Of a DNA stretch of 32,000 nucleotides, positions 3,586 through 21,226 are shown piece after piece. A program made the translations under genes and the position numbers. The first letter of the stretch is position 1; every line of letters begins with the position of its first letter. The stretch is from contig CAVUPH010000042.1 of NCBI GenBank assembly GCA_963743305.1, positions 1 through 32,000 of the forward strand, read 5' to 3'. The notes under the pieces are model-generated. The model did not search any database. It had not been told where the DNA came from and saw only the letters and a program-made list of their open reading frames with translations. This stretch comes from an uncultured delta proteobacterium. Lineage in GTDB: Bacteria; Desulfobacterota; RBG-13-43-22.

Positions 3586-6500
3586 ATGTTGGAAAAAATC
3601 ATCGCCTTGGTGCTCAGACAGAAAGGGACGGTCCTGGTTTTCTCGTTGCTCCTCGTGGCCTTTGGAGTCTATTCCTATATCAAGCTTCCCATCGACGCCT
3701 TCCCCGATGTCACCAACATCCAGGTGGAAGTCGTCAGCCACGCCAACGGACTTTCCGCACTGGAGATCGAGCGTTCGGTGACCTATCCCATCGAAATGTC
3801 CATGCGCGGGCTTCCGAAGAGTCAAACAGATGCGCTCTGTCACCAAGTTCGGCCTTTCCCTGGTGACCATTGTCTTTGAAGACAGTGTCGATATTTACTT
3901 TGCCCGACAGCTTGTCTTTGAGAGACTGGCCGAAGCGAGGGAGAATGTCCCCAAAGGCGTCGAAGTCGCCATGGGACCCATTGCGACCGCCATGGGGGAG
4001 ATATACCAGTTCACGCTCGACGGCAAGATGCCCGATGATCCCCAGAAGAAAATCGAGTATTTGACGAACTTGAGAACGATTCAGGAATGGATCATCAACC
4101 CGCTGCTGAAAAGCGTTCCGGGAGTGAACGAAATAAATTCCTTCGGCGGGTATTTCAAGCAGTATCAGGTGATCGTTTCTCCCGACAGGCTCTTGAAACA
4201 TAACCTTTCCGTCGACCAGGTATACACGGCGATCGAAAAGAATAATCAGAATGCCGGCGGGAATGTGACTCGAAAAATACTCCGATCAGTATATCGTCCG
4301 GGGCGTCGGACTCATCAAGAATACGGCCGACATGGAGAACATCGTTCTCAAATCCTCCGGCGGCACGCCGACTTATCTGAAAGACGTTGCCGAAATACGG
4401 ATCGGGGAAGCCGTCCGGCAAGGCGCCGCCATGATCAACGGCAAGGACGAGGCGGTCGGCGGCATTGTCATGATGCTTCGGGGAGAGAACAGCCGCGAAG
4501 TGGTCGAACGGGTCAAGGAGAAGGTCAAAGAAATAAACGAGAACAACATTCTCGCCAAAGGGAATCAAGATACTACCCTATTACGATCGGTCCGATATCG
4601 TGAATGCCAGTGTCGCCACAGTCACCAAGGCGCTGGCTCGAAGGCGCCTTTCTCGTATTGATCGTTCTTTATCTTCTGCTGAGAAGCTTCAGGGCCTCCT
4701 TCGTCGTATTGATTGCCCTTCCGCTTTCTTTGCTGTCCACCTTCATCGTCATGAAGATAGTTGGATTAAGCGCCAATCTGATGTCTCTCGGCGGATTGGC
4801 GATTTCGATCGGCATGATCATAGACGCGACCATCATTCAGGTGGAAAACGTCCAGAGGCATCTCAGCGAAGACGCGGCATCGGAGCGCAAAAGCTACTAC
4901 CGTGCTCAAGGCGGTCCTCGAGGTAAGAAAGCCGAGCATCCTCGGCGAGTTGATCATCGCCATCACCTTTATTCCCATTCTGGCCCTGGAAGGGATTGAA
5001 GGGAAGATGTTCGGGCCCCTGGCCATGACGGTCGCCATCGCCCTTCTCTCGTCCCTGGTTCTTTCGATCTTCGTCATTCCGGTCTTGTGCGCCCTGATCC
5101 TGAAGCCGCAACCGGAAAAAGAGAGCGTCATCATGAGGCCTGTAAAGAAACTCTATCTGCCGGTGCTCAAGTACACCATGAAGAAGAGAAAACCGGTCTT
5201 GGCCACGGCCGGTGTCTTTCTTATCCTGTCCCTGGTCATTATTCCACGGCTGGGAACGGAATTCATACCGATCATGGATGAAGGGGCTTTTGATATGGAT
5301 GTATCTCTTCTGCCCGGCGTTTCACTGGATAAAGCCATGGAGATAAACAAACTCATAGGTGAAAAGCTAAAAACGTTCCCGGAATTGCAAACGGTGGTTT
5401 CCCGAACGGGACAAACCGGGGTGGCCCTGGACACGCGGGGTGTGGATAAGACCGGCTACGTCGGGGTGTTGAAGCCGAGAAAGGAATGGAAAAGCGATCT
5501 GAACCGGGAGGAATTGACCGGCAAGATGAGAGAGGCCTATAGAGGCCATACCGGGAATAGGATTTGGTTTCAGCCAGCCCATCCAATGCAGAATCGATGA
5601 ACTGGTGGCCGGAACGCGGGCCCAGCTTATTCTGAGACTTTTTGGCGAGGACATGGAGATATTGAAGATCGAAGGCGGACGAAATAGCGCGGGTCCTCTC
5701 CAAAATCGAAGGCGCAACCGATTTGCTTACGGAAAAGGTGACCGGGCAGTCGTATCTCACCATCGAGATAGACCGACCGAAAATCGCCCGCTACGGATTG
5801 AATATCAGCGATATCCAAAACCTGGTTGAAATCGCTATTGCCGGCAAATCGGCATCCAGGTTCTATGAGGAGAACAGGAGCTTCGATATTACCGTCCGCC
5901 TGCCGGAGGAAAACAGGAACTCGGTGGAGACCATCGGCAATATTCTGGTGCCGACGGCGGGCGGTTCGAATGTTCCCCTCAGTCAGCTGGCGAAGATCTC
6001 TCTCTCGGAAGGACCGGCACAGATAAGCAGGGAGGACGGCCTACGGAGAATCGGCATCGAGATGAACATAGACGGAAGAGACATCGGGGGTTTTGTCGCA
6101 GGAAGCAAAACAAAAGATAGCGGAAAAGGTGAAACTGCCTTCCGGATACTACCTCACCTGGGGAGGACAGTTTGAAAACCAGCAGCGGGCCATGGCCAAG
6201 ATGATGATCATCGGACCGGTGGCAATCGGACTGATTCTGCTTCTCCTCTTTGCCACCTTCCGATCGATAAAACCGGCCCTGCTGGTAATCCTCAATCTGC
6301 CCTTTGCCTTGATCGGCGGCGTGTTCTCGCTGTGGATTTCCGGTCTATACCTGTCGGTTCCGGCTTCGGTCGGGTTTATCGTGCTCTTCGGGGTCGCGGT
6401 GTTGAACGGGGTGGTTCTGGTGTCCCGCATCTCCCAATTGCGCGAGGAAGAGGGGTTGGAGTTGACGGAGGCGATTCTCAAAGGCAGCGCAAGACCGATT

Positions 6501-7910: not shown

Positions 7911-8150
7911 TCACCCTTTCAAGTTGTTTGCCGCTTGATCTTTGAGGTAGGTCCGGTACTCCCGCAAGAGGGCATAGGCGTATTCGCGGCGGACCCGGTC
8001 CGACGAAGGGATATAGTTCTTTTGGGCTTCCAAGCGGTCGAGTATCTCTTCGGCCGTCGCCTCATTTGCCGGCCGACCTTGCGCGTAAAGGTCGGCCATG
8101 ATCTCGACCAACCCATTAACCCGGACCTGGGTATCATCGGGAAATTTCAA
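7911..8150 (-). CDS. Conserved-looking hypothetical protein (79 aa, TTG start)
   Basis: Track ORF; sequence MKFPDDTQVRVNGLVEIMADLYAQGRPANEATAEEILDRLEAQKNYIPSSDRVRREY... No ATG start, so it may be a fragment. Family not recognised with certainty. Confidence 0.4.
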   Translation of the reverse strand: MKFPDDTQVRVNGLVEIMADLYAQGRPANEATAEEILDRLEAQKNYIPSSDRVRREYAYALLREYRTYLKDQAANNLKG

Positions 8151-9142: not shown

Positions 9143-10055
9143 CTAACAAGGCTTTCTGGCCTCAATATAGGCTGAAACGACATAATCAGCCGCATTTTTA
9201 CTTTTTTCCGGCTCCCACTCCCGGATTATTTCCTGGCTTTTGTCGTGAGGGATGACCCTGATTTCCCTGAAACCGGCCTTCCGCAGCATATCTTCGGTAT
9301 CTTGAATCGTGGCTGCACCCCCGATGCAAGCGCTGAGCAGGGCCAGATTGTTTTTGATGTCCTCCGGCAGGGGAGCTGTCGCCACGACGTCGGAGATGGC
9401 CAGCCTCCCTCCCGGCTTCAGTACCCTGAAGGCATCACGATACACCGCTCGTTTTATCCGGCGATAGGTTGATCACGCAATTCGACATGATAATGTCGGC
9501 CGTGTTATCGCCGACCGGCAGGTGTTCGATCTCCCCCAGGCGGAATTCGACGTTCGTGTGCTTGAATTTTTTCGGCATTTTTTCTCGCCTTGCTGATCAT
9601 GTCCGGCGTCATGTCCACACCGATGATGTGTCCCGTTTCCCCTACTTCCTTTGCGGCCAGGAAGCAGTCGAAACCACCGCCGCAGCCCAGATCGACCACC
9701 GTCTCTCCGGGTTTAAGGGAGGCCAGCGCCACCGGGTTCCCGCAACCCAGCATCATGTTCGCCCCGTCGGGAGCGCTGTCTAAATCCTTCTGGGAATAGC
9801 CAAGGTTCCCCATGTAAGCGGCCATTTTTTCAACGGAAAAATCCACCGCGCCGCAGCAGGATGCCTCTTGCCCGGAAGCGGCATCGGTAGCCCCGCAGCA
9901 TGACACCAGAGGGAAGAGCGTTCCTTTGAATATCGCTTGTCGAACAACACGACGCGGCAGATCCAGGTTTCGGGTGTGTCGTTCCCTGCCTTGGCGATGC
10001 TGCCGTAGCGGTCACGTACGGTTGCCCTTATTTTTTCTTTTTCCATCGTTTCCAT
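9143..10055 (-). pseudogene. arsM: Arsenite S-adenosylmethionine methyltransferase (ArsM-like), several frameshifts
   Basis: Four minus ORFs in three reading frames hold consecutive ArsM segments. 9780..10055: [17 protein letters not shown]. 9830..10015: SCCSTSD. 9505..9906: [85 protein letters not shown]. 9143..9445: AFRVLKPGGRLAISDVV...IGGAATIQD. Confidence 0.75.
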
Positions 10056-11190: not shown

Positions 11191-11322
11191 ATGCCGTCAG
11201 GAAAGGAAGTCAGACCGGAAAAGTGGGGCGAAGTCTTGGAACTGTACGACGACGGGAATTATTCGGCTATCTGGAGTTCATATGACGCTTTGAAGACCCA
11301 GAAGCGCCCCGAGTTCGATTAA
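11191..11322 (+). CDS. Possible small ORF (43 aa), unknown function
   Basis: Not in the track (under 60 aa). SD GAGGAGG sits 8 nt before the ATG. Peptide: MPSGKEVRPEKWGEVLELYDDGNYSAIWSSYDALKTQKRPEFD. It overlaps the 3' end of the decayed flavoprotein gene on the other strand. Confidence 0.25.
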   Translation: MPSGKEVRPEKWGEVLELYDDGNYSAIWSSYDALKTQKRPEFD

Positions 11323-11678
11323 CCGCGCGCCCAGGTTCCTGGCCGATTCGATAGCCTCCGGGTCATCCGCTATTTCTCCCACCGCAAAAGCCCGGCCATG
11401 GACCCCTCGGTTGGCCGGTATCATCTCGTGTTCAGGAAAAAGGCCTGAATCGCCGTTATCGCGCTTTCCGCGCCATCTCTCCGGCCCACCACGACGGCGC
11501 CGCCAATCCTATTTCTCAGTTGCCCTTTGATGCACCAGGTGCGATCCATAAATATCTTGAGCTGCCCGGATACATTATTGATGAGGAAATCTCCTCCGGT
11601 TACGGATAAGGTTTCTTTCAGCAGGTAATCGGTGTTGCTGTTTTTCCTTGGGCTTCCGGAAATATACAAGACCTTCAT
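11278..11678 (-). pseudogene. NADPH-dependent FMN reductase / iron-sulfur flavoprotein-like gene with an internal deletion and a frameshift
   Basis: MKVLYISGSPRKNSNTDYLLKETL is the flavodoxin-like N-terminus. It jumps directly to NVSGQLKIFMDRT..LRNRIGGAVVVG, so roughly 50 residues including the usual Cys region are missing. The C-terminus MIPANRGVHGRAFAVGEIADDPEAIESARNLGARLIELG is in another frame. Confidence 0.6.
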
Positions 11679-11709: not shown

Positions 11710-12021
11710 TTAGACAGGGTTATTGGGTCGGTTGACTTCGTCCACTACCCGGCGGACGTCAGCCAGGCATCAGCGACCTTTCGGGTTTTTTGCGGCACAG
11801 TCACACCCACCGGCTTTCTTTGCGGCGGAGATCTTTTCCAGAATCAGGGAACGGCCATTCTTGATGAAATCCTGTTCGATATCCCGCCTGGTATGACCGA
11901 AACAGTAACAAACAAGATCGGTGGTCTGTTTTTCCTCGGGAATCCGGTCATCGGGACGACCCCAAGCGACCGGTATCGGTGCTGTCGGCACAATTAGATT
12001 AATTTCTTTCGCTTTTTTCAT
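11710..12021 (-). CDS. CopZ-N-terminal/BFD-like [2Fe-2S]-binding protein, probable selenoprotein (UGA at 11770-11772 read as Sec)
   Basis: Track ORF 11770..12021 ends ...VCYCFGHTRRDI...GGCDCAAKNPKGR at TGA. The same frame continues C-L-A-D-V-R-R-V-V-D-E-V-N-R-P-N-N-P-V to TAA at 11710-11712. A hairpin (CGUCC/GGACG plus UGAC/GUCA, loop GCCGGGUAGU) starts 8 nt after the UGA. Confidence 0.7.
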
Positions 12022-12052: not shown

Positions 12053-13208
12053 TTACTTTTTGGCCTCTCGAACCACTCCTCTGGCTATCCCTACTAAAAG
12101 CAGGAGGAAAAGTCCATATAACCCATAAAAGGAGGCATACCCAACGGAGGAAATTATTCTCCCTCCGATGGCCGTGCCTACGCCGCCGCCGCCCATGAAG
12201 CCGAAAGCCACCAAGGACATGGCGGTACCCCGGGCCATCTTGGCGAATTCCGTCGCGATGGTGATCAGACTGGAATGGGCCAGCATGAATCCAATACCCA
12301 ATAGGGCGATGGCTATGACCAACAGCACGGGTTGTGTAGTGACCGAGAATAGAAGACCATCGGCGATTACGGCCGAGAGAAGGCCAAGACTCAAGGTATT
12401 CAGCCGGCCGATTCGTTGCGCGATTTTTCCCACCAAGCGACCGGTAATCACCGCCCCGGCCCCGAAGGCGGTCAGGATCAAGCCGATAACAAAATAATTA
12501 TAGCTGAAGAGGTATTCGGTATAGGCCCCCAGAGTAGGAAAAAGAGCCGATGATCAGGATACCTTCGAGGAGAACGACGATATAAACCCAAAGACTCCGC
12601 ACATTACGCAGCAAGTCAACATAGGGCTTGAAAAAGCGACTGTTCGGGTTTTTCTTGGAGTGGGCCTGACTACCGACGAGGATCAACAGCAGGGTGGAAA
12701 TAACGGAAAGGGCGGCATAAGTGAAAAAGACCCCCCGCCAACTGACGAAATAGGCAATGGAGCCCCCCACCGCCATGCTCAATCCTTGCCCCAAAAAAGC
12801 GATTCCCATAAAGGTGCCGATGGCCTGCTGACGCCGCTCCATCGGAATCACATCCCCGATCAAGGCCAGTGAAATGGGCATGACCGAGGCCGCAAAAACG
12901 CCGGTGACGGCCCGGTACAGGGCCAGGTCAAAAAGGCCGAGGCCAAGCCCGCACAAGGCCGTGCCGACGGTGAAGAAGATCATGGAGAAGGTGATCACCG
13001 GTCGTTTTCCATAGCGGTCGGCCAGTGGTCCAAAGACCAACTGGAAGAGGCCGAAAGGGATCATATAGGCGCTGATCAACAGTCCGGCCCGAACCGGAGA
13101 AACCTGTAAGGACTTGGCAATAGCCGGGAGGATAGGGGACACCACCCAGTTGTCGGCCATGACCACAAAACCGGCCAGGCCCAGATATTAAAATAAGGCG
13201 ATTTTCAT
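12053..13208 (-). pseudogene. MFS transporter with an early nonsense codon and one frameshift
   Basis: The ATG at 13208 gives MKIALF, then TAA, then YLGLAGFVVMADNWVVSPILPAIA (TM1). ORF 12498..13166 and ORF 12053..12481 join if one nt is corrected at the C5/G5 run near 12527-12533 (..FSYSG / YTEYLFSYNYFVIGLILTAFGAG). Confidence 0.65.
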
Positions 13209-15321: not shown

Positions 15322-16242
15322 TCAATTGGTGAGACCCAATTGGGCAAGTTTTTTTTCGATTTCCACCTCGGGGAAAAAGCCGGAATGGCGGAAAACTTCG
15401 GTTCCGGTTTTATCAAAAAAGACCTGCACCGGGACGAACCGGATTCCAAACCGGGTGGCCAAGAACTGTTCTTCTTGAACATGAACGAAAAACACATTTA
15501 ATTTTCCCTGGTATTTCTTTTTCAGTTTGTCCAATATGGGGGTCATCAGATCACAAGGGCCGCAGCCGGTGGAGCCAAAATCCACCAGGCTCGGTTTCCC
15601 GGACAGGCGCAATTTGTCCACCGGATGGTCCCGGGCCAGAAGGGCCTGTTTTTTAATCCAGGACTCGTCCACATAAATCGAGCTTCGCCGGGACAAGGTC
15701 TGGATGTAGCTTTCCATCGCTTTTTTCTGTTCCTGCTGGAGAAGGACCATCCTCAATATGCCCCTGACCTCTTCCAGGGGCGCTCCACCGAAAGAGGACT
15801 TATTTTCCTCATAGGAGCGGATCAGGTCTTCCTCGGACACCTGGATGTTTTTCACCTTTTCTCCGAGAAAGTCGCGAATCATCTGAGTTTCGTCTTTGGT
15901 CTTTTTATGCCCGGCGGCCCGGGCTTCTTGAAGCACAAGAGCATTGGAAGCCAAGTTTTCCAGAAGAAAAACTTCGTTTTTCTTGAGTTGCGCCTGGAGG
16001 GGGGCGGGTGCCTTGTTAATGGTTTGCGCCAATTCGGCCGCTTTGATGGTCACTTTATCGACGGTCAGGAGCGTTCCCGGGGGCAATTTGGCCAGGTAGG
16101 CCGTTTTTAAAATACCGTCAGCCAATCCGGGATAGGTCGCCTCAACGGTTTTGTGATCCTGGGCCAGGGCATTTTGGAAGAACCCGAGAGTTAAAAACAG
16201 GAACGTCGTAAAGACCGCAGGGCCTATTCTCGGGAAGGGCAT
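15322..16242 (-). CDS. Exported fusion protein: SurA-N/PpiD-like chaperone region plus C-terminal thioredoxin domain (CGPC)
   Basis: 306 aa. A signal peptide ends ALAQ. A helical region of about 190 aa resembles SurA N-terminal-type chaperone domains. Then VDFGSTGCGPCDLMTPILDKL begins a thioredoxin domain clearly paralogous to ORF 14900..15286. Confidence 0.75.
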   Translation of the reverse strand: MPFPRIGPAVFTTFLFLTLGFFQNALAQDHKTVEATYPGLADGILKTAYLAKLPPGTLLTVDKVTIKAAELAQTINKAPAPLQAQLKKNEVFLLENLASNALVLQEARAAGHKKTKDETQMIRDFLGEKVKNIQVSEEDLIRSYEENKSSFGGAPLEEVRGILRMVLLQQEQKKAMESYIQTLSRRSSIYVDESWIKKQALLARDHPVDKLRLSGKPSLVDFGSTGCGPCDLMTPILDKLKKKYQGKLNVFFVHVQEEQFLATRFGIRFVPVQVFFDKTGTEVFRHSGFFPEVEIEKKLAQLGLTN

Positions 16243-16330
16243 CTTTTTTCCACCTTTCTGATTTTGTATTTCCGATTTATGGAAGCACCGGCCAGGGTTA
16301 TCCGGACTGGTGCCTTTGATCTGTCACGTT

Positions 16331-16537
16331 CTAGCCACAGCAGGACGAACGGGAGGCGTCTGCCAGTGCCAGGGGGAGAATGATCTCCTGGACCTGAGAT
16401 CGGGGCCAGGGTCAGGTCGGGGCGACGCTGGCCCCGGTCGCTTTGGCGGCCTGATTGGACAACTCGGCCACATTCGAGCCACCCAAATGGGCCGGGATCA
16501 TGATATTCTCGGAAGGGGCGCAGCAGTTTTCAACCAT
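16331..16537 (-). CDS. Unannotated small ORF: 41 codons, in-frame UGA (16412-16414), 26 more codons. Candidate novel small selenoprotein with terminal Cys pairs.
   Basis: SD GGAGGAG (16545-16551) lies 7 nt before the ATG at 16537 and 20 nt after the thioredoxin stop. Peptide: MVENCCAPSENIMIPAHLGGSNVAELSNQAAKATGASVAPT-UGA-PWPRSQVQEIILPLALADASRSSCCG, stop TAG 16331-16333. The hairpin GAUCUC-AGGUCCAG-GAGAUC (16401-16382) starts 11 nt after the UGA. Confidence 0.4.
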
Positions 16538-16556
16538 AACGGCTCTCCTCCAAAAT

Positions 16557-16790
16557 CTATGGTTTAATCCACTTCAAAACTTCTTCTTTTTTCGGGATTT
16601 TTCCCATGGATCTAACCTGCCCATCCACCACCACGGCGGGCGTCCCAAAAACCCCGTAGCCGGCTATCTCCTTAATATCGGTCACTTTTTCAATTTCGGC
16701 CTGAACCCCGCTAGCGGCTACGGTTTCTCTAACTATCTTTTCCGTCTGCTGGCACCTCGGACAACCCGGCCCCAAAACCTTGATTTTCAC
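16557..16790 (-). CDS. Small thioredoxin-family protein (redox-active disulfide protein 2 type, CPRC)
   Basis: VKIKVLGPGCPRCQQTEKIV...GVFGTPAVVVDGQV. The likely GTG start at 16790 is preceded by AAGGAGG; the track ORF extends to 16817. Confidence 0.85.
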   Translation of the reverse strand: MKIKVLGPGCPRCQQTEKIVRETVAASGVQAEIEKVTDIKEIAGYGVFGTPAVVVDGQVRSMGKIPKKEEVLKWIKP

Positions 16791-16903
16791 GGAATAACCT
16801 CCTTGGAGAATGACCACACCGCATGCTTTCTGATGGGGCCATTCGCGAATAAAAATTATATAATAACTATATGCCTATCAAGTTATAATTTCAACAAAAA
16901 AAT

Positions 16904-17230
16904 TTATAAATGGGAAAGGATTTCCCGCTGCTCCCGGGCTTGATTTTTGAGCATCAGAGAAACTCCATTGATCAGACCCAGGACTTCTTTGTTTTTAATC
17001 CAATAGAACACCCGCAGGCCTTCTTTTCTGGAGTCCAGGATCCCGGATTGCTTAAGGATGGTCAGGTGTTTGGAGACATTCGCCTGTTCCTGGTCGATAG
17101 CCGGGAAAATTTCACAGACGCAGCGTTCGCCGTTTTTCAATAAATCCAGGATCTGCAGCCGGGTAGGCTGTCCCAGGGCTTTGAGAAAAACCGCCTGGTT
17201 TTCATAGACTTTCTGTTGAATATTTTCCAT
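16904..17230 (-). CDS. arsR: ArsR/SmtB-family regulator with CVC metalloid-site motif
   Basis: 108 aa: FLKALGQPTRLQILDLLKNGERCVCEIF...VSKHLTILKQSGIL. Confidence 0.85.
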   Translation of the reverse strand: MENIQQKVYENQAVFLKALGQPTRLQILDLLKNGERCVCEIFPAIDQEQANVSKHLTILKQSGILDSRKEGLRVFYWIKNKEVLGLINGVSLMLKNQAREQREILSHL

Positions 17231-17341: not shown

Positions 17342-17917
17342 TTATTCCTGGGGGATGCACTCCTTATAGTAGGATTTGTAATCCACGAATTCCCGGTCGT
17401 GGATCGGCCCTTTTTCCTTGAAGGGGTGGCCGTATTCCTCCACCTTGAAACGGCCCATGAAGCGATTCACCAAAGGATGCCCCAGTTTCATCCATTCCAC
17501 GACGCCGCCTTTGGCCCAATACACGTTCTTGTAGCCATACTTATACATCAGGGCCGTGAAGTAAGCGGAACGGTGAGCGGTTCGGCAAAAGATCCAATAT
17601 TCGGCGTTGGCATCGGGAAAGCGTTTGGGCAGGGTGTAGACATGGGACAGGGTCACCAGGTTGGTACCCTCGATATGCCCGGCATCGAACTCCGGATGGG
17701 TGCGGGCATCGATTAATATGGCCTTGCTCTTCCCGGCCTGGACCTCCAGCCAGACCTTGTTCAGGTCGGCCATTGTTTTAATTTTATCTTTGGGAATGGC
17801 CTTTTCCAGATCGGCCTTAAAGGCTTCTTCACCCTTGGTTACATCCTGGGCAGGGGAAAGGCCCGTAAAAGCAAAAAAGACAAACAAGAGACTCAGTACG
17901 CTAATTATTTTTTTCAT
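17342..17917 (-). CDS. Exported single-domain rhodanese (sulfurtransferase)
   Basis: 191 aa with a signal peptide ending SPAQD. The rhodanese fold carries the active-site loop CRTAHRS. Confidence 0.85.
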   Translation of the reverse strand: MKKIISVLSLLFVFFAFTGLSPAQDVTKGEEAFKADLEKAIPKDKIKTMADLNKVWLEVQAGKSKAILIDARTHPEFDAGHIEGTNLVTLSHVYTLPKRFPDANAEYWIFCRTAHRSAYFTALMYKYGYKNVYWAKGGVVEWMKLGHPLVNRFMGRFKVEEYGHPFKEKGPIHDREFVDYKSYYKECIPQE

Positions 17918-18877: not shown

Positions 18878-19162
18878 TTAAAAGGGAATAATGAAGTCCA
18901 TCTCTTTTAGTCTCTCCCCCAGTTCCCCGATGGTGATGGGCTTAAAACCAAATTTTTCCACATTGGCCGGGATATTGGAATAGTATTCTCCTTCCATGTC
19001 AATAAACCAGTCCAGGTTCTCCTGGTAGGCCTCGGTCATCTCCACTTCGTGATCCAGGACCACCATGGTGACGAAATTATTTTCAATGACCAGACCCAGG
19101 CTGGAGCGCATCCCTTCCCACAGCTCATCTTTGGTTCGCACCAGAAAGGCTACTTTTTTCAT
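18878..19162 (-). CDS. DsrE/DsrF/DsrH-family small protein
   Basis: 94 aa (MKKVAFLVRTKDELWEGMRSSLGL...). Size, fold-like pattern and position next to a DsrE-like gene support the call. Confidence 0.55.
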   Translation of the reverse strand: MKKVAFLVRTKDELWEGMRSSLGLVIENNFVTMVVLDHEVEMTEAYQENLDWFIDMEGEYYSNIPANVEKFGFKPITIGELGERLKEMDFIIPF

Positions 19163-19822: not shown

Positions 19823-21010
19823 CTATAATCCAACTGTGAATTTATTGGTTTCTTCGTTCCAGGTAACTAAAAGATACCACAATAAAAGGATCCCTGCAAT
19901 AAAGAGCAGGCTTCCGCCCCAGCCGAAAACGTCCGGCAGGAATATGGCTCGGCCCAGTTTCTGCCGCCAACCGGTACTCCGTAAAAATGCGGTGCTTAAG
20001 GAATTAAAAGTGGCAAAGGTCAGCAGGGCGGCCCATAATTTGAGCTGGCCTTCGCCCACCCGCCAAAGGGTCCCGCTTCCGCACCCGCCGGCAATCACCA
20101 TGCCTATGCCAAATATCAGCCCTCCGAAGAGGGAACCTCCCCAAAAAGCCGGGATGACATAGGTGCTTTCCGCACGAACGCCAGTCCATTTGAGTACGGC
20201 TACGCCTAAGGAACCCAGGATGATGCTCAAGGCGATGGCCTTGGCGATCCCGGCTTCCCCGGTCATGAAGGGATCCCGAAAAGCCCGGACAAAGCAGAAG
20301 CGGCACCGTTGCAGGATGATGCCGAAGGCCGCCCCGAAAAGGAGCAGGCCGCCGATTTCCGTGTAGGCCCGACCGGCATACCCATAAGCCCAGAGGATCA
20401 ACCCCAGGAGTACCAGCACCCCCAGATAGGGCTGAACGGACTTCCAGTCAAAGCTTTTTTTCCCTGGTTTGGCCGGGGGGACAAAGCCGGCTTTGGACGG
20501 GAATTTTTCCAGTTCCCAGAGCAGGTACTTGAGCCCGATAAAGGCACCGATCATCAGGCCGATCAGCATGGGGAACGCGCTAGCCGAAAGGTTGATCAGG
20601 GGGGTGTAGAAGGCTCCCACGTTGCAGCCGATGGCCAAGGCCGAGCCGACCCCCATCAGGGTTCCACCCGCCAGTCCTTTGATCATTTCCAGAGGCGGGG
20701 CCCAGCGAAAGGCAAATTCCTTGGCCATCAGAGCCGATCCGAAGGTGCCCAGGAGGAAGCCGATATCCATCACGGACCCGGAAAACAAGATAGGGTTCTC
20801 CGGCCGCGCAGGATAGAGGCCGAGCCCGTAAAAAAGCCAGTCGGCCCAATTTCTAATCCCGCCCACGATACCCCAGGGACGGGACCAGGCCACGATCAAA
20901 ATACTGAACAACCCCAGGAGCAGGCCCCCGGTGAGGGCCGGCCACTGGGCGTAGAAAACGGCGGCATATCCCTCTTTGAACTTATTTTTTAAAACGTTTT
21001 CTTCGGCCAT
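19823..21010 (-). CDS. YeeE/YedE-family membrane protein (thiosulfate/sulfur- or selenium-compound transporter family)
   Basis: About 395 aa, polytopic, with an internal duplication bearing GCNVG and GGCGSG Cys-loops. The likely ATG at 21010 follows GAGGAAGGAAG; the track starts at a TTG at 21025. Confidence 0.85.
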   Translation of the reverse strand: MAEENVLKNKFKEGYAAVFYAQWPALTGGLLLGLFSILIVAWSRPWGIVGGIRNWADWLFYGLGLYPARPENPILFSGSVMDIGFLLGTFGSALMAKEFAFRWAPPLEMIKGLAGGTLMGVGSALAIGCNVGAFYTPLINLSASAFPMLIGLMIGAFIGLKYLLWELEKFPSKAGFVPPAKPGKKSFDWKSVQPYLGVLVLLGLILWAYGYAGRAYTEIGGLLLFGAAFGIILQRCRFCFVRAFRDPFMTGEAGIAKAIALSIILGSLGVAVLKWTGVRAESTYVIPAFWGGSLFGGLIFGIGMVIAGGCGSGTLWRVGEGQLKLWAALLTFATFNSLSTAFLRSTGWRQKLGRAIFLPDVFGWGGSLLFIAGILLLWYLLVTWNEETNKFTVGL

Positions 21011-21226
21011 GGCTTCCTTCCTCAATTAACTCAGTGATTCATCATGGATTTTCGGATTTTGGCCTTAAATTTTAAAATTATAATGCTCAAAGCCGCCATT
21101 GTCAAATTTTCAAATCTGGTTTACAAGCCTCTCTTTTTTTAGTAAGACGAGACCACTCCCTAATAAAACCTCCGGATTTGCGAGGGCGCTTTGGGGCACG
21201 GAAATAAAGTGTGACCAAAATTCGTC

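Follow-up and report, generated by a model that had tools for sequence, protein, structure and literature searches.

A small open reading frame with an in-frame UGA in an ArsR-controlled gene cluster is probably a deletion remnant of a DGC-domain gene whose UGA was a selenocysteine codon

Operons that combine genes for ArsR, ArsP, an ArsE (Trx_3) thioredoxin and a DGC-domain protein (Pfam PF08859) have been described in Pseudodesulfovibrio mercurii ND132, DND132_2314 being an example of such a protein (bioRxiv 10.1101/2022.10.17.512643), and selenoproteins related to metals or metalloids include SaoC, which ends in Cys-Cys-COOH, MbdU, SaoL, HgcA/HgcB and a putative mercuric transport protein (PMC13188914 Table 1). 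The 2026 compilation (PMC13188914), which lists 119 prokaryotic selenoprotein families and subfamilies, does not include PF08859/DGC, and searches of the literature on PF08859, on 'DGC domain' together with selenoprotein and on COG4273 returned nothing relevant. Here we analyzed a stretch of 32,000 nucleotides from an uncultured delta proteobacterium (NCBI GenBank assembly GCA_963743305.1, contig CAVUPH010000042.1, positions 1 to 32,000; hereafter the window, to which coordinates refer unless a relative is named), in which a mini open reading frame (mini-ORF) at 16331-16537, on the minus strand together with its cluster, consists of a 41-codon stub, an in-frame UGA and a 26-codon tail. As in the DND132_2314-type operons, it directly follows a Trx_3/ArsE gene under ArsR, and its stub and tail align with the DGC family termini, N-terminal CC and terminal CC[G/S] included, whereas the DGC core is missing and no Pfam match is obtained. 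Compared with the DGC family at large, the clade to which the window copy belongs has an extra U-x-W...QExILP segment with the in-frame UGA, absent from most members. Our conclusion is that the mini-ORF is probably a deletion remnant of a DGC gene whose UGA was ancestrally a selenocysteine (Sec) codon, and the intact DGC clade looks like an uncatalogued selenoprotein subfamily with an ordinary Sec mechanism, of which the window holds a deletion derivative. Like the SaoC, MbdU, SaoL, HgcA/HgcB and mercuric transport group, these proteins would combine Sec and Cys within a thiol-rich metal(loid) gene cluster and end in a vicinal Cys pair, and the presumed role of selenium, as a soft-metal ligand, is the same; unlike that group, the DGC Sec lies 20-30 residues from the CC pair, outside any CU, CxxU or UxxC motif, on a DGC fold (flavodoxin-like alpha/beta). 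NCBIfam searches that included SaoC (NF040734) gave no match for the window ORF (E up to 10) or for its intact and Cys-type relatives (E up to 0.1).

The mini-ORF is preceded by a Shine-Dalgarno (SD) sequence, GGAGGAG (16545-16551), read directly and also kept in the related loci L001 and L002 (alignment A1), which was inherited from the former DGC gene. A 7-nt spacer separates it from the ATG at 16537. The thioredoxin gene closes with TAG (16559-16557), and the ATG begins 20 nt past the final base of that codon. The stub (16415-16537), MVENCCAPSENIMIPAHLGGSNVAELSNQAAKATGASVAPT, reads MVENCC...VAPT and runs into the TGA (16412-16414); the same frame then continues through the tail (16334-16411), PWPRSQVQEIILPLALADASRSSCCG, within which lies the peptide SQVQEIILPLALADASR, and closes at a TAG (16331-16333), a position occupied by TAG or TAA in all relatives. 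A first-pass annotation, made from the sequence alone, had reported the strong SD with its spacing, the ATG, the distance to the thioredoxin stop and the succession of 41 codons, TGA, 26 further in-frame codons and TAG, all of which read as described. It had also taken the product for an unrecognized new small protein; instead, the peptide joins the N-terminal 31 and the C-terminal ~37 residues of a PF08859 DGC protein across a 261-nt deletion. The 68-aa read-through product has no Pfam or NCBIfam match even at E up to 10, and the homologue search that had been proposed for it retrieved an identical 41-aa entry as its sole match, but homologues with Cys in the UGA column (P0036 and P0125) were found by way of the intact relatives.

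Two related loci from metagenome-assembled genomes (MAGs) were retrieved with the downstream 306-aa gene as query. L001 contains an equivalent 41-codon ORF with the same deletion, and L002 has at that place a full 128-codon DGC gene, which reads MAEDCC...CSGGSNVGQLSNQAA...DGC...KQAAKATCASDAPA-TGA. The intact genes of L002, L003 and L004 each hold two CAGGCCGC repeats exactly 261 nt (87 codons) apart, while the window and L001 have a single copy (8 nt; 16446-16453, minus strand, in the window) and have lost the intervening 87 codons, which make up the entire DGC core; the sequence spanning the junction is ...AATCAGGCCGCCAAAGCGACC.... When the intact L002 DGC protein was compared with the window by tblastn, it matched the mini-ORF only, in two segments (residues 1-31, E=1.5e-8; residues ~115-153 including the tail, E=1e-12). 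Given the repeat pair, alignment A1 and this two-part match, we read the mini-ORF as a DGC gene with its core removed in frame, in which stub residues 1-31 are the DGC N-terminus and residues 32-41 the last 10 residues ahead of the Sec codon of the intact gene. Slippage or recombination between the two CAGGCCGC repeats excised the 87 codons, and with them the whole core. What is left of the 5' part, the SD, the ATG and the first 31 codons, now runs in frame into the final 10 codons upstream of the UGA, and from there into the UGA itself, the hairpin region and the tail.

The L002 protein has thousands of homologues, every one of them a PF08859 protein annotated as 'putative zinc-binding' or 'uncharacterized metal-binding protein', and the intact relatives P0004-P0176 are all PF08859 proteins. 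The 68-aa product stays below the gathering score of the Pfam DGC model, the core cysteines and the D-G-C motif having gone with the core; the remaining stub cysteines are altered in the window (CSGG to HLGG, KATC to KATG), and the N-terminal family pattern MxxxCC...CSGGSNVGQLSNQAA has degraded to AHLGGSNVAELSNQAA. That the ORF descends from a family member follows from the homology of the remaining parts and from synteny, the position after Trx_3 being shared by at least 10 loci. Of the vicinal cysteines to which the first-pass annotation had drawn attention, the opening CC is the invariant N-terminal CC of the DGC family, although the L001 allele has GY there.

A sequencing artefact as the origin of the deletion was rejected, the identical junction being present in the independent assembly L001. 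Independent recurrent deletions were rejected as well: the window and L001 share derived tail states and the KATG change (P after U, E to D, A to S, KATC to KATG), which argues for one deletion event, with recombination still conceivable from the flanking-gene distances. Two further features of these loci were recorded. At ~5450 of L002, a 1-nt gap after MAEDCC, probably an indel error, shifts the N-terminal CC out of the DGC frame, and at 5642-5690 of L001 a 49-nt insertion, opening with a repeat of TAGATTTT, separates the thioredoxin stop from the mini-ORF SD.

The best reading of the UGA in the intact DGC genes, judged from comparative sequence evidence, is that it is very likely a Sec codon. 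To the window, L001 and L002, a check at the DNA level added nine clusters of '128/130-aa' proteins (P0008, P0009, P0124, which is the cluster of L038, P0126, P0127, P0130, P0131, P0133 and P0138), in all nine of which a TGA is followed by an in-frame tail, giving 12 distinct sequences. The TGA occupies the identical codon in 12/12, and the next 45 nt are free of indels. Homologues that all end with TAA or TAG and lack the downstream frame had been named beforehand as the pattern that would speak against Sec; what we observed in these sequences was the opposite, TGA throughout with the frame kept in 11 of them. The tail motif, U-x-W-[PST]-x-x-x-[VILM]-Q-E-x-[IL]-L-[PS]...CC[G/S]-stop, is intact in 11 of the 12, with L094 as the exception, even though the DGC cores of this TGA clade diverge to 63% identity (median 74%, 10 intact members compared). 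Over tail codons 1-14, W, Q, E and L do not vary, and the mean raw ratio of non-synonymous to synonymous differences (pN/pS) is 0.42. The window tail can be aligned with the tails of L002-4, L038 and L090-96, as well as with full-length DGC proteins at their C-termini; in many family members of full length (139-143 aa), its homologue is the translated C-terminus (...ILP...SSCCG). Moreover, two homologues carry Cys in the UGA column, P0036 (...ATA-C-SWPPNLMQEVILPF...SCCV) and P0125 (...SSA-C-SWPPSLVQEVILPI...PCCG), and in both the Cys is followed by SWPP..QEVILP. The suggestion of the first-pass annotation that the UGA is a Sec codon thus holds in the form that it very probably is or recently was one, since a deep clade has kept both the TGA column and the tail. 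Public annotations end the proteins of this clade at the UGA, at 128-130 residues.

In L094, the end ASGTSCCG continues in the +1 frame after a 1-nt shift in an A-run (TTAAAAAGG; ~1920-1960), which is either an assembly error or a real frameshift. P0036 and P0125 are ~68% identical to each other though they come from one metagenome, and a sample-specific annotation quirk is conceivable. A profile-free search of 1.84 billion representatives with P0125 showed ~1,000 family representatives, among which none aligned through the tail and no further Cys- or Sec-type cases appeared. Global reassignment of UGA was also considered and rejected, as TGA is the ordinary stop of 6 of the 18 confident genes in the window.

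In the E. coli fdhF-type selenocysteine insertion sequence (SECIS), a minimal hairpin begins ~11 nt after the UGA and presents G and U in its apical loop. For the window, a SECIS downstream of the UGA is a plausible candidate on suggestive evidence. Hairpin A, GAUCUC-AGGUCCAG-GAGAUC (16382-16401, minus strand), is a candidate SECIS in the window clade: as the first-pass annotation had pointed out, its perfect 6-bp stem starts at the 11th nt after the UGA and places GGU at +21 to +23 from the U (stem from +13, GGU-containing loop from +19). This fdhF-like geometry recurs in the hairpin of another UGA-containing gene of the window, the CopZ-like gene described below. Unlike an fdhF-type element, however, hairpin A lacks statistical support from covariation or stability and overlaps a second hairpin, B (GG..AGGA-N5-UCCU..CC, 16374-16394, minus strand; the RNAalifold family consensus), which is better conserved family-wide and shows no significant covariation either. 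Across the 12 sequences, 76% of cells are paired in A and 81% in B, the four core pairs of B reaching 98% (47/48 cells). The pair at the closing end of A is A-U in the window, G-U in L002-4 and G-C in L001, and B shows one compensatory change, G-C to A-U, in L003. Hairpin A is the more stable local fold in the window clade and L091 (-5.7 to -8.3 kcal/mol), and B in L038, L090 and L093-96. The minimum free energy (MFE) structure of the window itself does not include A and puts B in another register, with a UCAU loop that has no G. Both hairpins overlap conserved codons, and in all members one or more stable hairpins with a G among the first two loop bases lie 13-40 nt past the UGA. By our own estimate, chance alone would supply a perfect 6-bp hairpin in a search space of this kind in ~4% of cases; the signal beyond chance is the TGA column and downstream frame shared by 12 sequences, not the hairpin alone.

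With the core deleted, the DGC function is gone in the window copy. We compared the two deletion alleles, window and L001, as one sequence pair. The stub gave a non-synonymous rate (dN) of 0.245 and a synonymous rate (dS) of 0.128, and evolves at about the neutral rate; the flanking ArsR, Trx_3 and DsbD_TM genes gave dN 0.02-0.05 and dS 0.21-0.29, and the tail after the UGA gave dN 0.04 and dS 0.56. Counted by hand over 24 aligned codons (alignment A1), the tail differs by 8 synonymous versus 2 non-synonymous changes (binomial p ~0.002), and its sole indel is a tandem 6-nt duplication, CTGGCA-CTGGCA (16361-16372, minus strand), which keeps the frame and adds 'LA'. By this measure the Sec tail appears to be still translated and under purifying selection. 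Whether the 68-aa Sec read-through product is still made or the locus is a young pseudogene is about evenly balanced on the thin basis of one pair and ten substitutions.

That the locus still encodes a functional selenopeptide therefore stands, in our judgement, a little short of an even chance. Tentatively, such a product may be a 68-residue selenopeptide with an unconstrained 41-residue leader and a conserved Sec...Cys-Cys arm that, without the core, would bind or shuttle As(III) or another soft metal(loid) through a minimal set of three ligands (one Se, two S). A serious competitor is a young pseudogene: the ancestor would have been a DGC selenoprotein, and the deleted ORF would have lost its function, because translation does not pass the UGA or because the product does nothing, the conserved look of the tail coming from chance, recent recombination or too little time. 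We regard this as quite possible. It agrees with the loss of the whole core and the neutral rate of the stub, in which family-invariant residues have been lost separately (C17H, S18L, G24A and Q25E in the window; C5G, C6Y and others in L001), with the shift of hairpin B in the window MFE to a register whose loop has no G, and with the absence of ArsP from the operon copy in the window. It fits less well with the 8:2 excess of synonymous changes in the tail of the two deletion alleles, where the stub shows the opposite pattern, with the in-frame nature of the only tail indel, and with the retention of SD, ATG, open frame, TGA and final stop in both. Two other coding explanations at this site were rejected: an antisense ORF (16310-16567, plus strand) is weakly conserved between the window and L001, and an internal start for the tail would need an in-frame ATG, GTG or TTG, none of which occurs downstream of the UGA.

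The wider question is whether the TGA of the whole clade could be a plain stop, derived from a Cys codon by a TGY to TGA nonsense mutation, with the tail a slowly decaying relic. Other DGC clades supply controls, having an in-frame TAA (L044-L046, L019, L026, L040) or TAG (L061, L066, L072) between core and tail. Their tails are still recognizable in frame (...SCCG or ...CGCRQT), with Gln at the aligned position in full-length relatives, and the presence of CCG tails after TAA or TAG (L044-46, L019, L026, L061, L066) speaks for the plain-stop explanation; the lack of significant SECIS covariation or stability, the lack of an Rfam match and the loss of one terminal Cys in L003 and L004 are also in its favor. 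In the largest TAA clade, however, whose cores are at least 84% identical, the Cys-pair end is kept in 6/15 tails. Among close relatives of the TAA and TAG forms, the tail is already broken in L024, L025, L033, L047 and L074. Nonsense truncation in this family thus leads to visible tail decay, for the shallow TAA clade has lost the tail in 9/15 and the older TGA clade shows no such decay: with core identity down to 63%, 11 of its 12 tails are intact and gapless over 45 nt, W, Q-E and L are invariant after the UGA, pN/pS is below 1, and the window/L001 pair differs 8:2 in favor of synonymous changes. The TAA and TAG forms are probably recurrent nonsense truncations of a dispensable tail, and we consider the same account of the TGA clade very unlikely. 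Even less credible is a non-coding, regulatory role for the stretch past the UGA, for instance as 5' leader or attenuator of the downstream thioredoxin-domain gene. Although it sits between two genes and can form alternative, mutually exclusive hairpins, its substitutions cluster at synonymous sites of a single frame, its homologue in full-length DGC proteins is the translated C-terminus, it has no terminator-like site or Rfam match, and the sole promoter-like match falls at 16533-16505, within the stub and before the UGA rather than in the tail.

A separate length class of DGC proteins was noted in the course of these comparisons, comprising P0013, P0019, P0023, P0057 and similar proteins of 127 aa with a uniform ...SEGKS end; one relative, P0059 (166 aa), runs on as ...SEGKVLNLVRESGPGG....

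Several observations nevertheless weigh against the Sec reading and the deletion history proposed here. Hairpins A and B are mutually exclusive, and the favored one varies by clade; covariation is not significant for either, its score being reached in 95/500 shuffles for both, and the MFE z-scores of the 48 nt after the UGA (six family members) range from -1.4 to +1.5, indicating no unusual stability. The covariance scan proposed for the hairpin region brought no gain, as Rfam, applied to the whole window at gathering thresholds and to 16100-16700 at E up to 10, returned chance-level microRNA and long non-coding RNA matches and no SECIS family. Both Cys-type homologues, P0036 and P0125, come from JGI sample 3300075153, and their Cys is seen at the protein level only. 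Within the 32-kb window there is no tRNA and no sel gene (selA/B/C/D). The Sec lies outside any CxxU/UxxC motif, and L003 and L004 are without one Cys of the terminal pair. A stop followed by an in-frame tail can arise in the DGC family by simple nonsense mutation, as in the TAA and TAG clades, and the selection test on the tail comprises one sequence pair and 10 substitutions. In the flanking genes, the distances from L002 to either deletion allele are marginally smaller than that between the two alleles (window and L001), so recombination is possible in the history of the locus. Many genes of the window assembly are frameshifted.

If the UGA of the intact genes is a Sec codon, as we favor, the ancestral gene would have worked as follows. 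The intact gene follows genes for ArsR, sometimes an ArsP permease, and the Trx_3/ArsE thioredoxin. Translation from the SD and ATG would yield a Cys-rich DGC core of ~115 residues and reach the UGA ~128-130 codons in, with a hairpin 13-40 nt further on as the site to which SelB would bring Sec-tRNA; Sec would be inserted, and translation would run 24-35 codons further to a C-terminus ending in CC[G/S]. In an AlphaFold model of the Cys-type homologue P0125, the alpha/beta core has a predicted local distance difference test (pLDDT) score above 90 for most of residues 12-125, and the N-terminal CC arm and residues 128-153 fall below 50-55, the tail at 128-153 thus being predicted to be disordered and flexible. 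A fold search of the PDB with this model gave no match below E=0.01, generic flavodoxin-like folds only. The flexible tail, with one selenol and two thiols, may together with the N-terminal CC arm and the core cysteines bind or hand over As(III), methyl-As(III) or another soft metal(loid). By analogy, the selenol and vicinal-thiol arm may best be explained as a soft-metal(loid) binding or hand-over arm, because the setting is an ArsR-controlled cluster with ArsP, ArsE, several thioredoxins, DsbD_TM and a CDF transporter. In principle, such a Sec/CC arm would resemble the vicinal cysteines of ArsD or the C-terminal CC of MerA.

Directly upstream of the mini-ORF lies the Trx_3 gene, of the MTH895-ArsE thioredoxin-like family (16557-16817, minus strand; Pfam PF13192 3.4e-29, TIGR00412 1.1e-28), which is directly upstream of the DGC gene in all relatives; the cluster is headed by an ArsR-family regulator (16904-17230, minus strand; Pfam HTH_5 4.1e-14), and the downstream gene encodes the 306-aa protein, with a C-terminal thioredoxin domain (15322-16242, minus strand; Pfam Thioredoxin 1.8e-11), which is syntenic in relatives. 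Throughout, the DGC relatives follow a Trx_3 gene within ArsR / ArsP / CDF / thioredoxin / DsbD clusters.

The window also contains, 4.5 kb from the mini-ORF, the CopZ-like gene (11710-12021, minus strand), the second UGA-containing gene that the first-pass annotation had cited in support of Sec decoding. It exists as described and belongs with the (2Fe-2S)-binding selenoproteins of the CopZ family in type; its motif is G-R-U-C, and the sequence around the TGA reads ...KNPKGR-U-CLADVRRVVDEVNRPNNPV. Its NCBIfam matches, CopZ_Nterm_CC (7.4e-15) and CopZ_Nterm_CU (seleno)protein (6.1e-5), are both under the cutoffs. L003 (5932-6240) and a partial L001 copy (8031-8138) keep the TGA, and a 7-bp hairpin with the loop CGGGUA starts 14 nt from the U of the UGA. 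The gene fits a catalogued selenoprotein family, '(2Fe-2S)-binding protein (CopZ family) form 1, GxUC' (PMC13188914 Table 1), and with its conserved TGA it lends indirect support to Sec decoding in this lineage. CopZ family form 1 resembles the DGC case in sharing the genome neighbourhood, a conserved in-frame TGA and a short C-terminal extension past Sec, but it is an unrelated protein family and already catalogued, whereas the DGC selenoprotein is not.

Sec forms are known in PF04143, the family of a YeeE/YedE-type sulfur transporter gene of the window (19823-21025, minus strand), but the copy here lacks an in-frame TGA and is read through with Cys (GCNVG, GGCGSG); next to it lie a small conserved ORF, putatively DsrE-like (18878-19162), and a rhodanese gene (17342-17917). 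Split genes occur at 9143-10055 (minus strand), 3830-5600 (plus strand), 12053-13166 (minus strand) and 11278-11678 (minus strand), and they encode an ArsM-like methyltransferase (3 or more frameshifts), a fragmented AcrB-type transporter, an MFS transporter divided between two ORFs, and an FMN reductase. These look like the result of long-read indel error or of widespread pseudogenization, and since several genes are split across frames, single-base frame calls in the window need care. The relatives come from 'MFD' MAG assemblies.

For the DGC family, the TAA and TAG versions mean that a stop followed by a conserved in-frame tail is by itself insufficient to call Sec. The window copy amounts to a natural dissection, in which the core has been deleted and the Sec tail is apparently still selected. 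If the Sec reading is true, the PF08859 DGC proteins of ArsR/ArsP/ArsE-type operons would be an added family of the prokaryotic selenoproteome and would join the recently recognized metal(loid)-handling selenoproteins, and the tail selenol, pointing to soft-metal(loid) transfer, would offer a handle on the function of the DGC domain.

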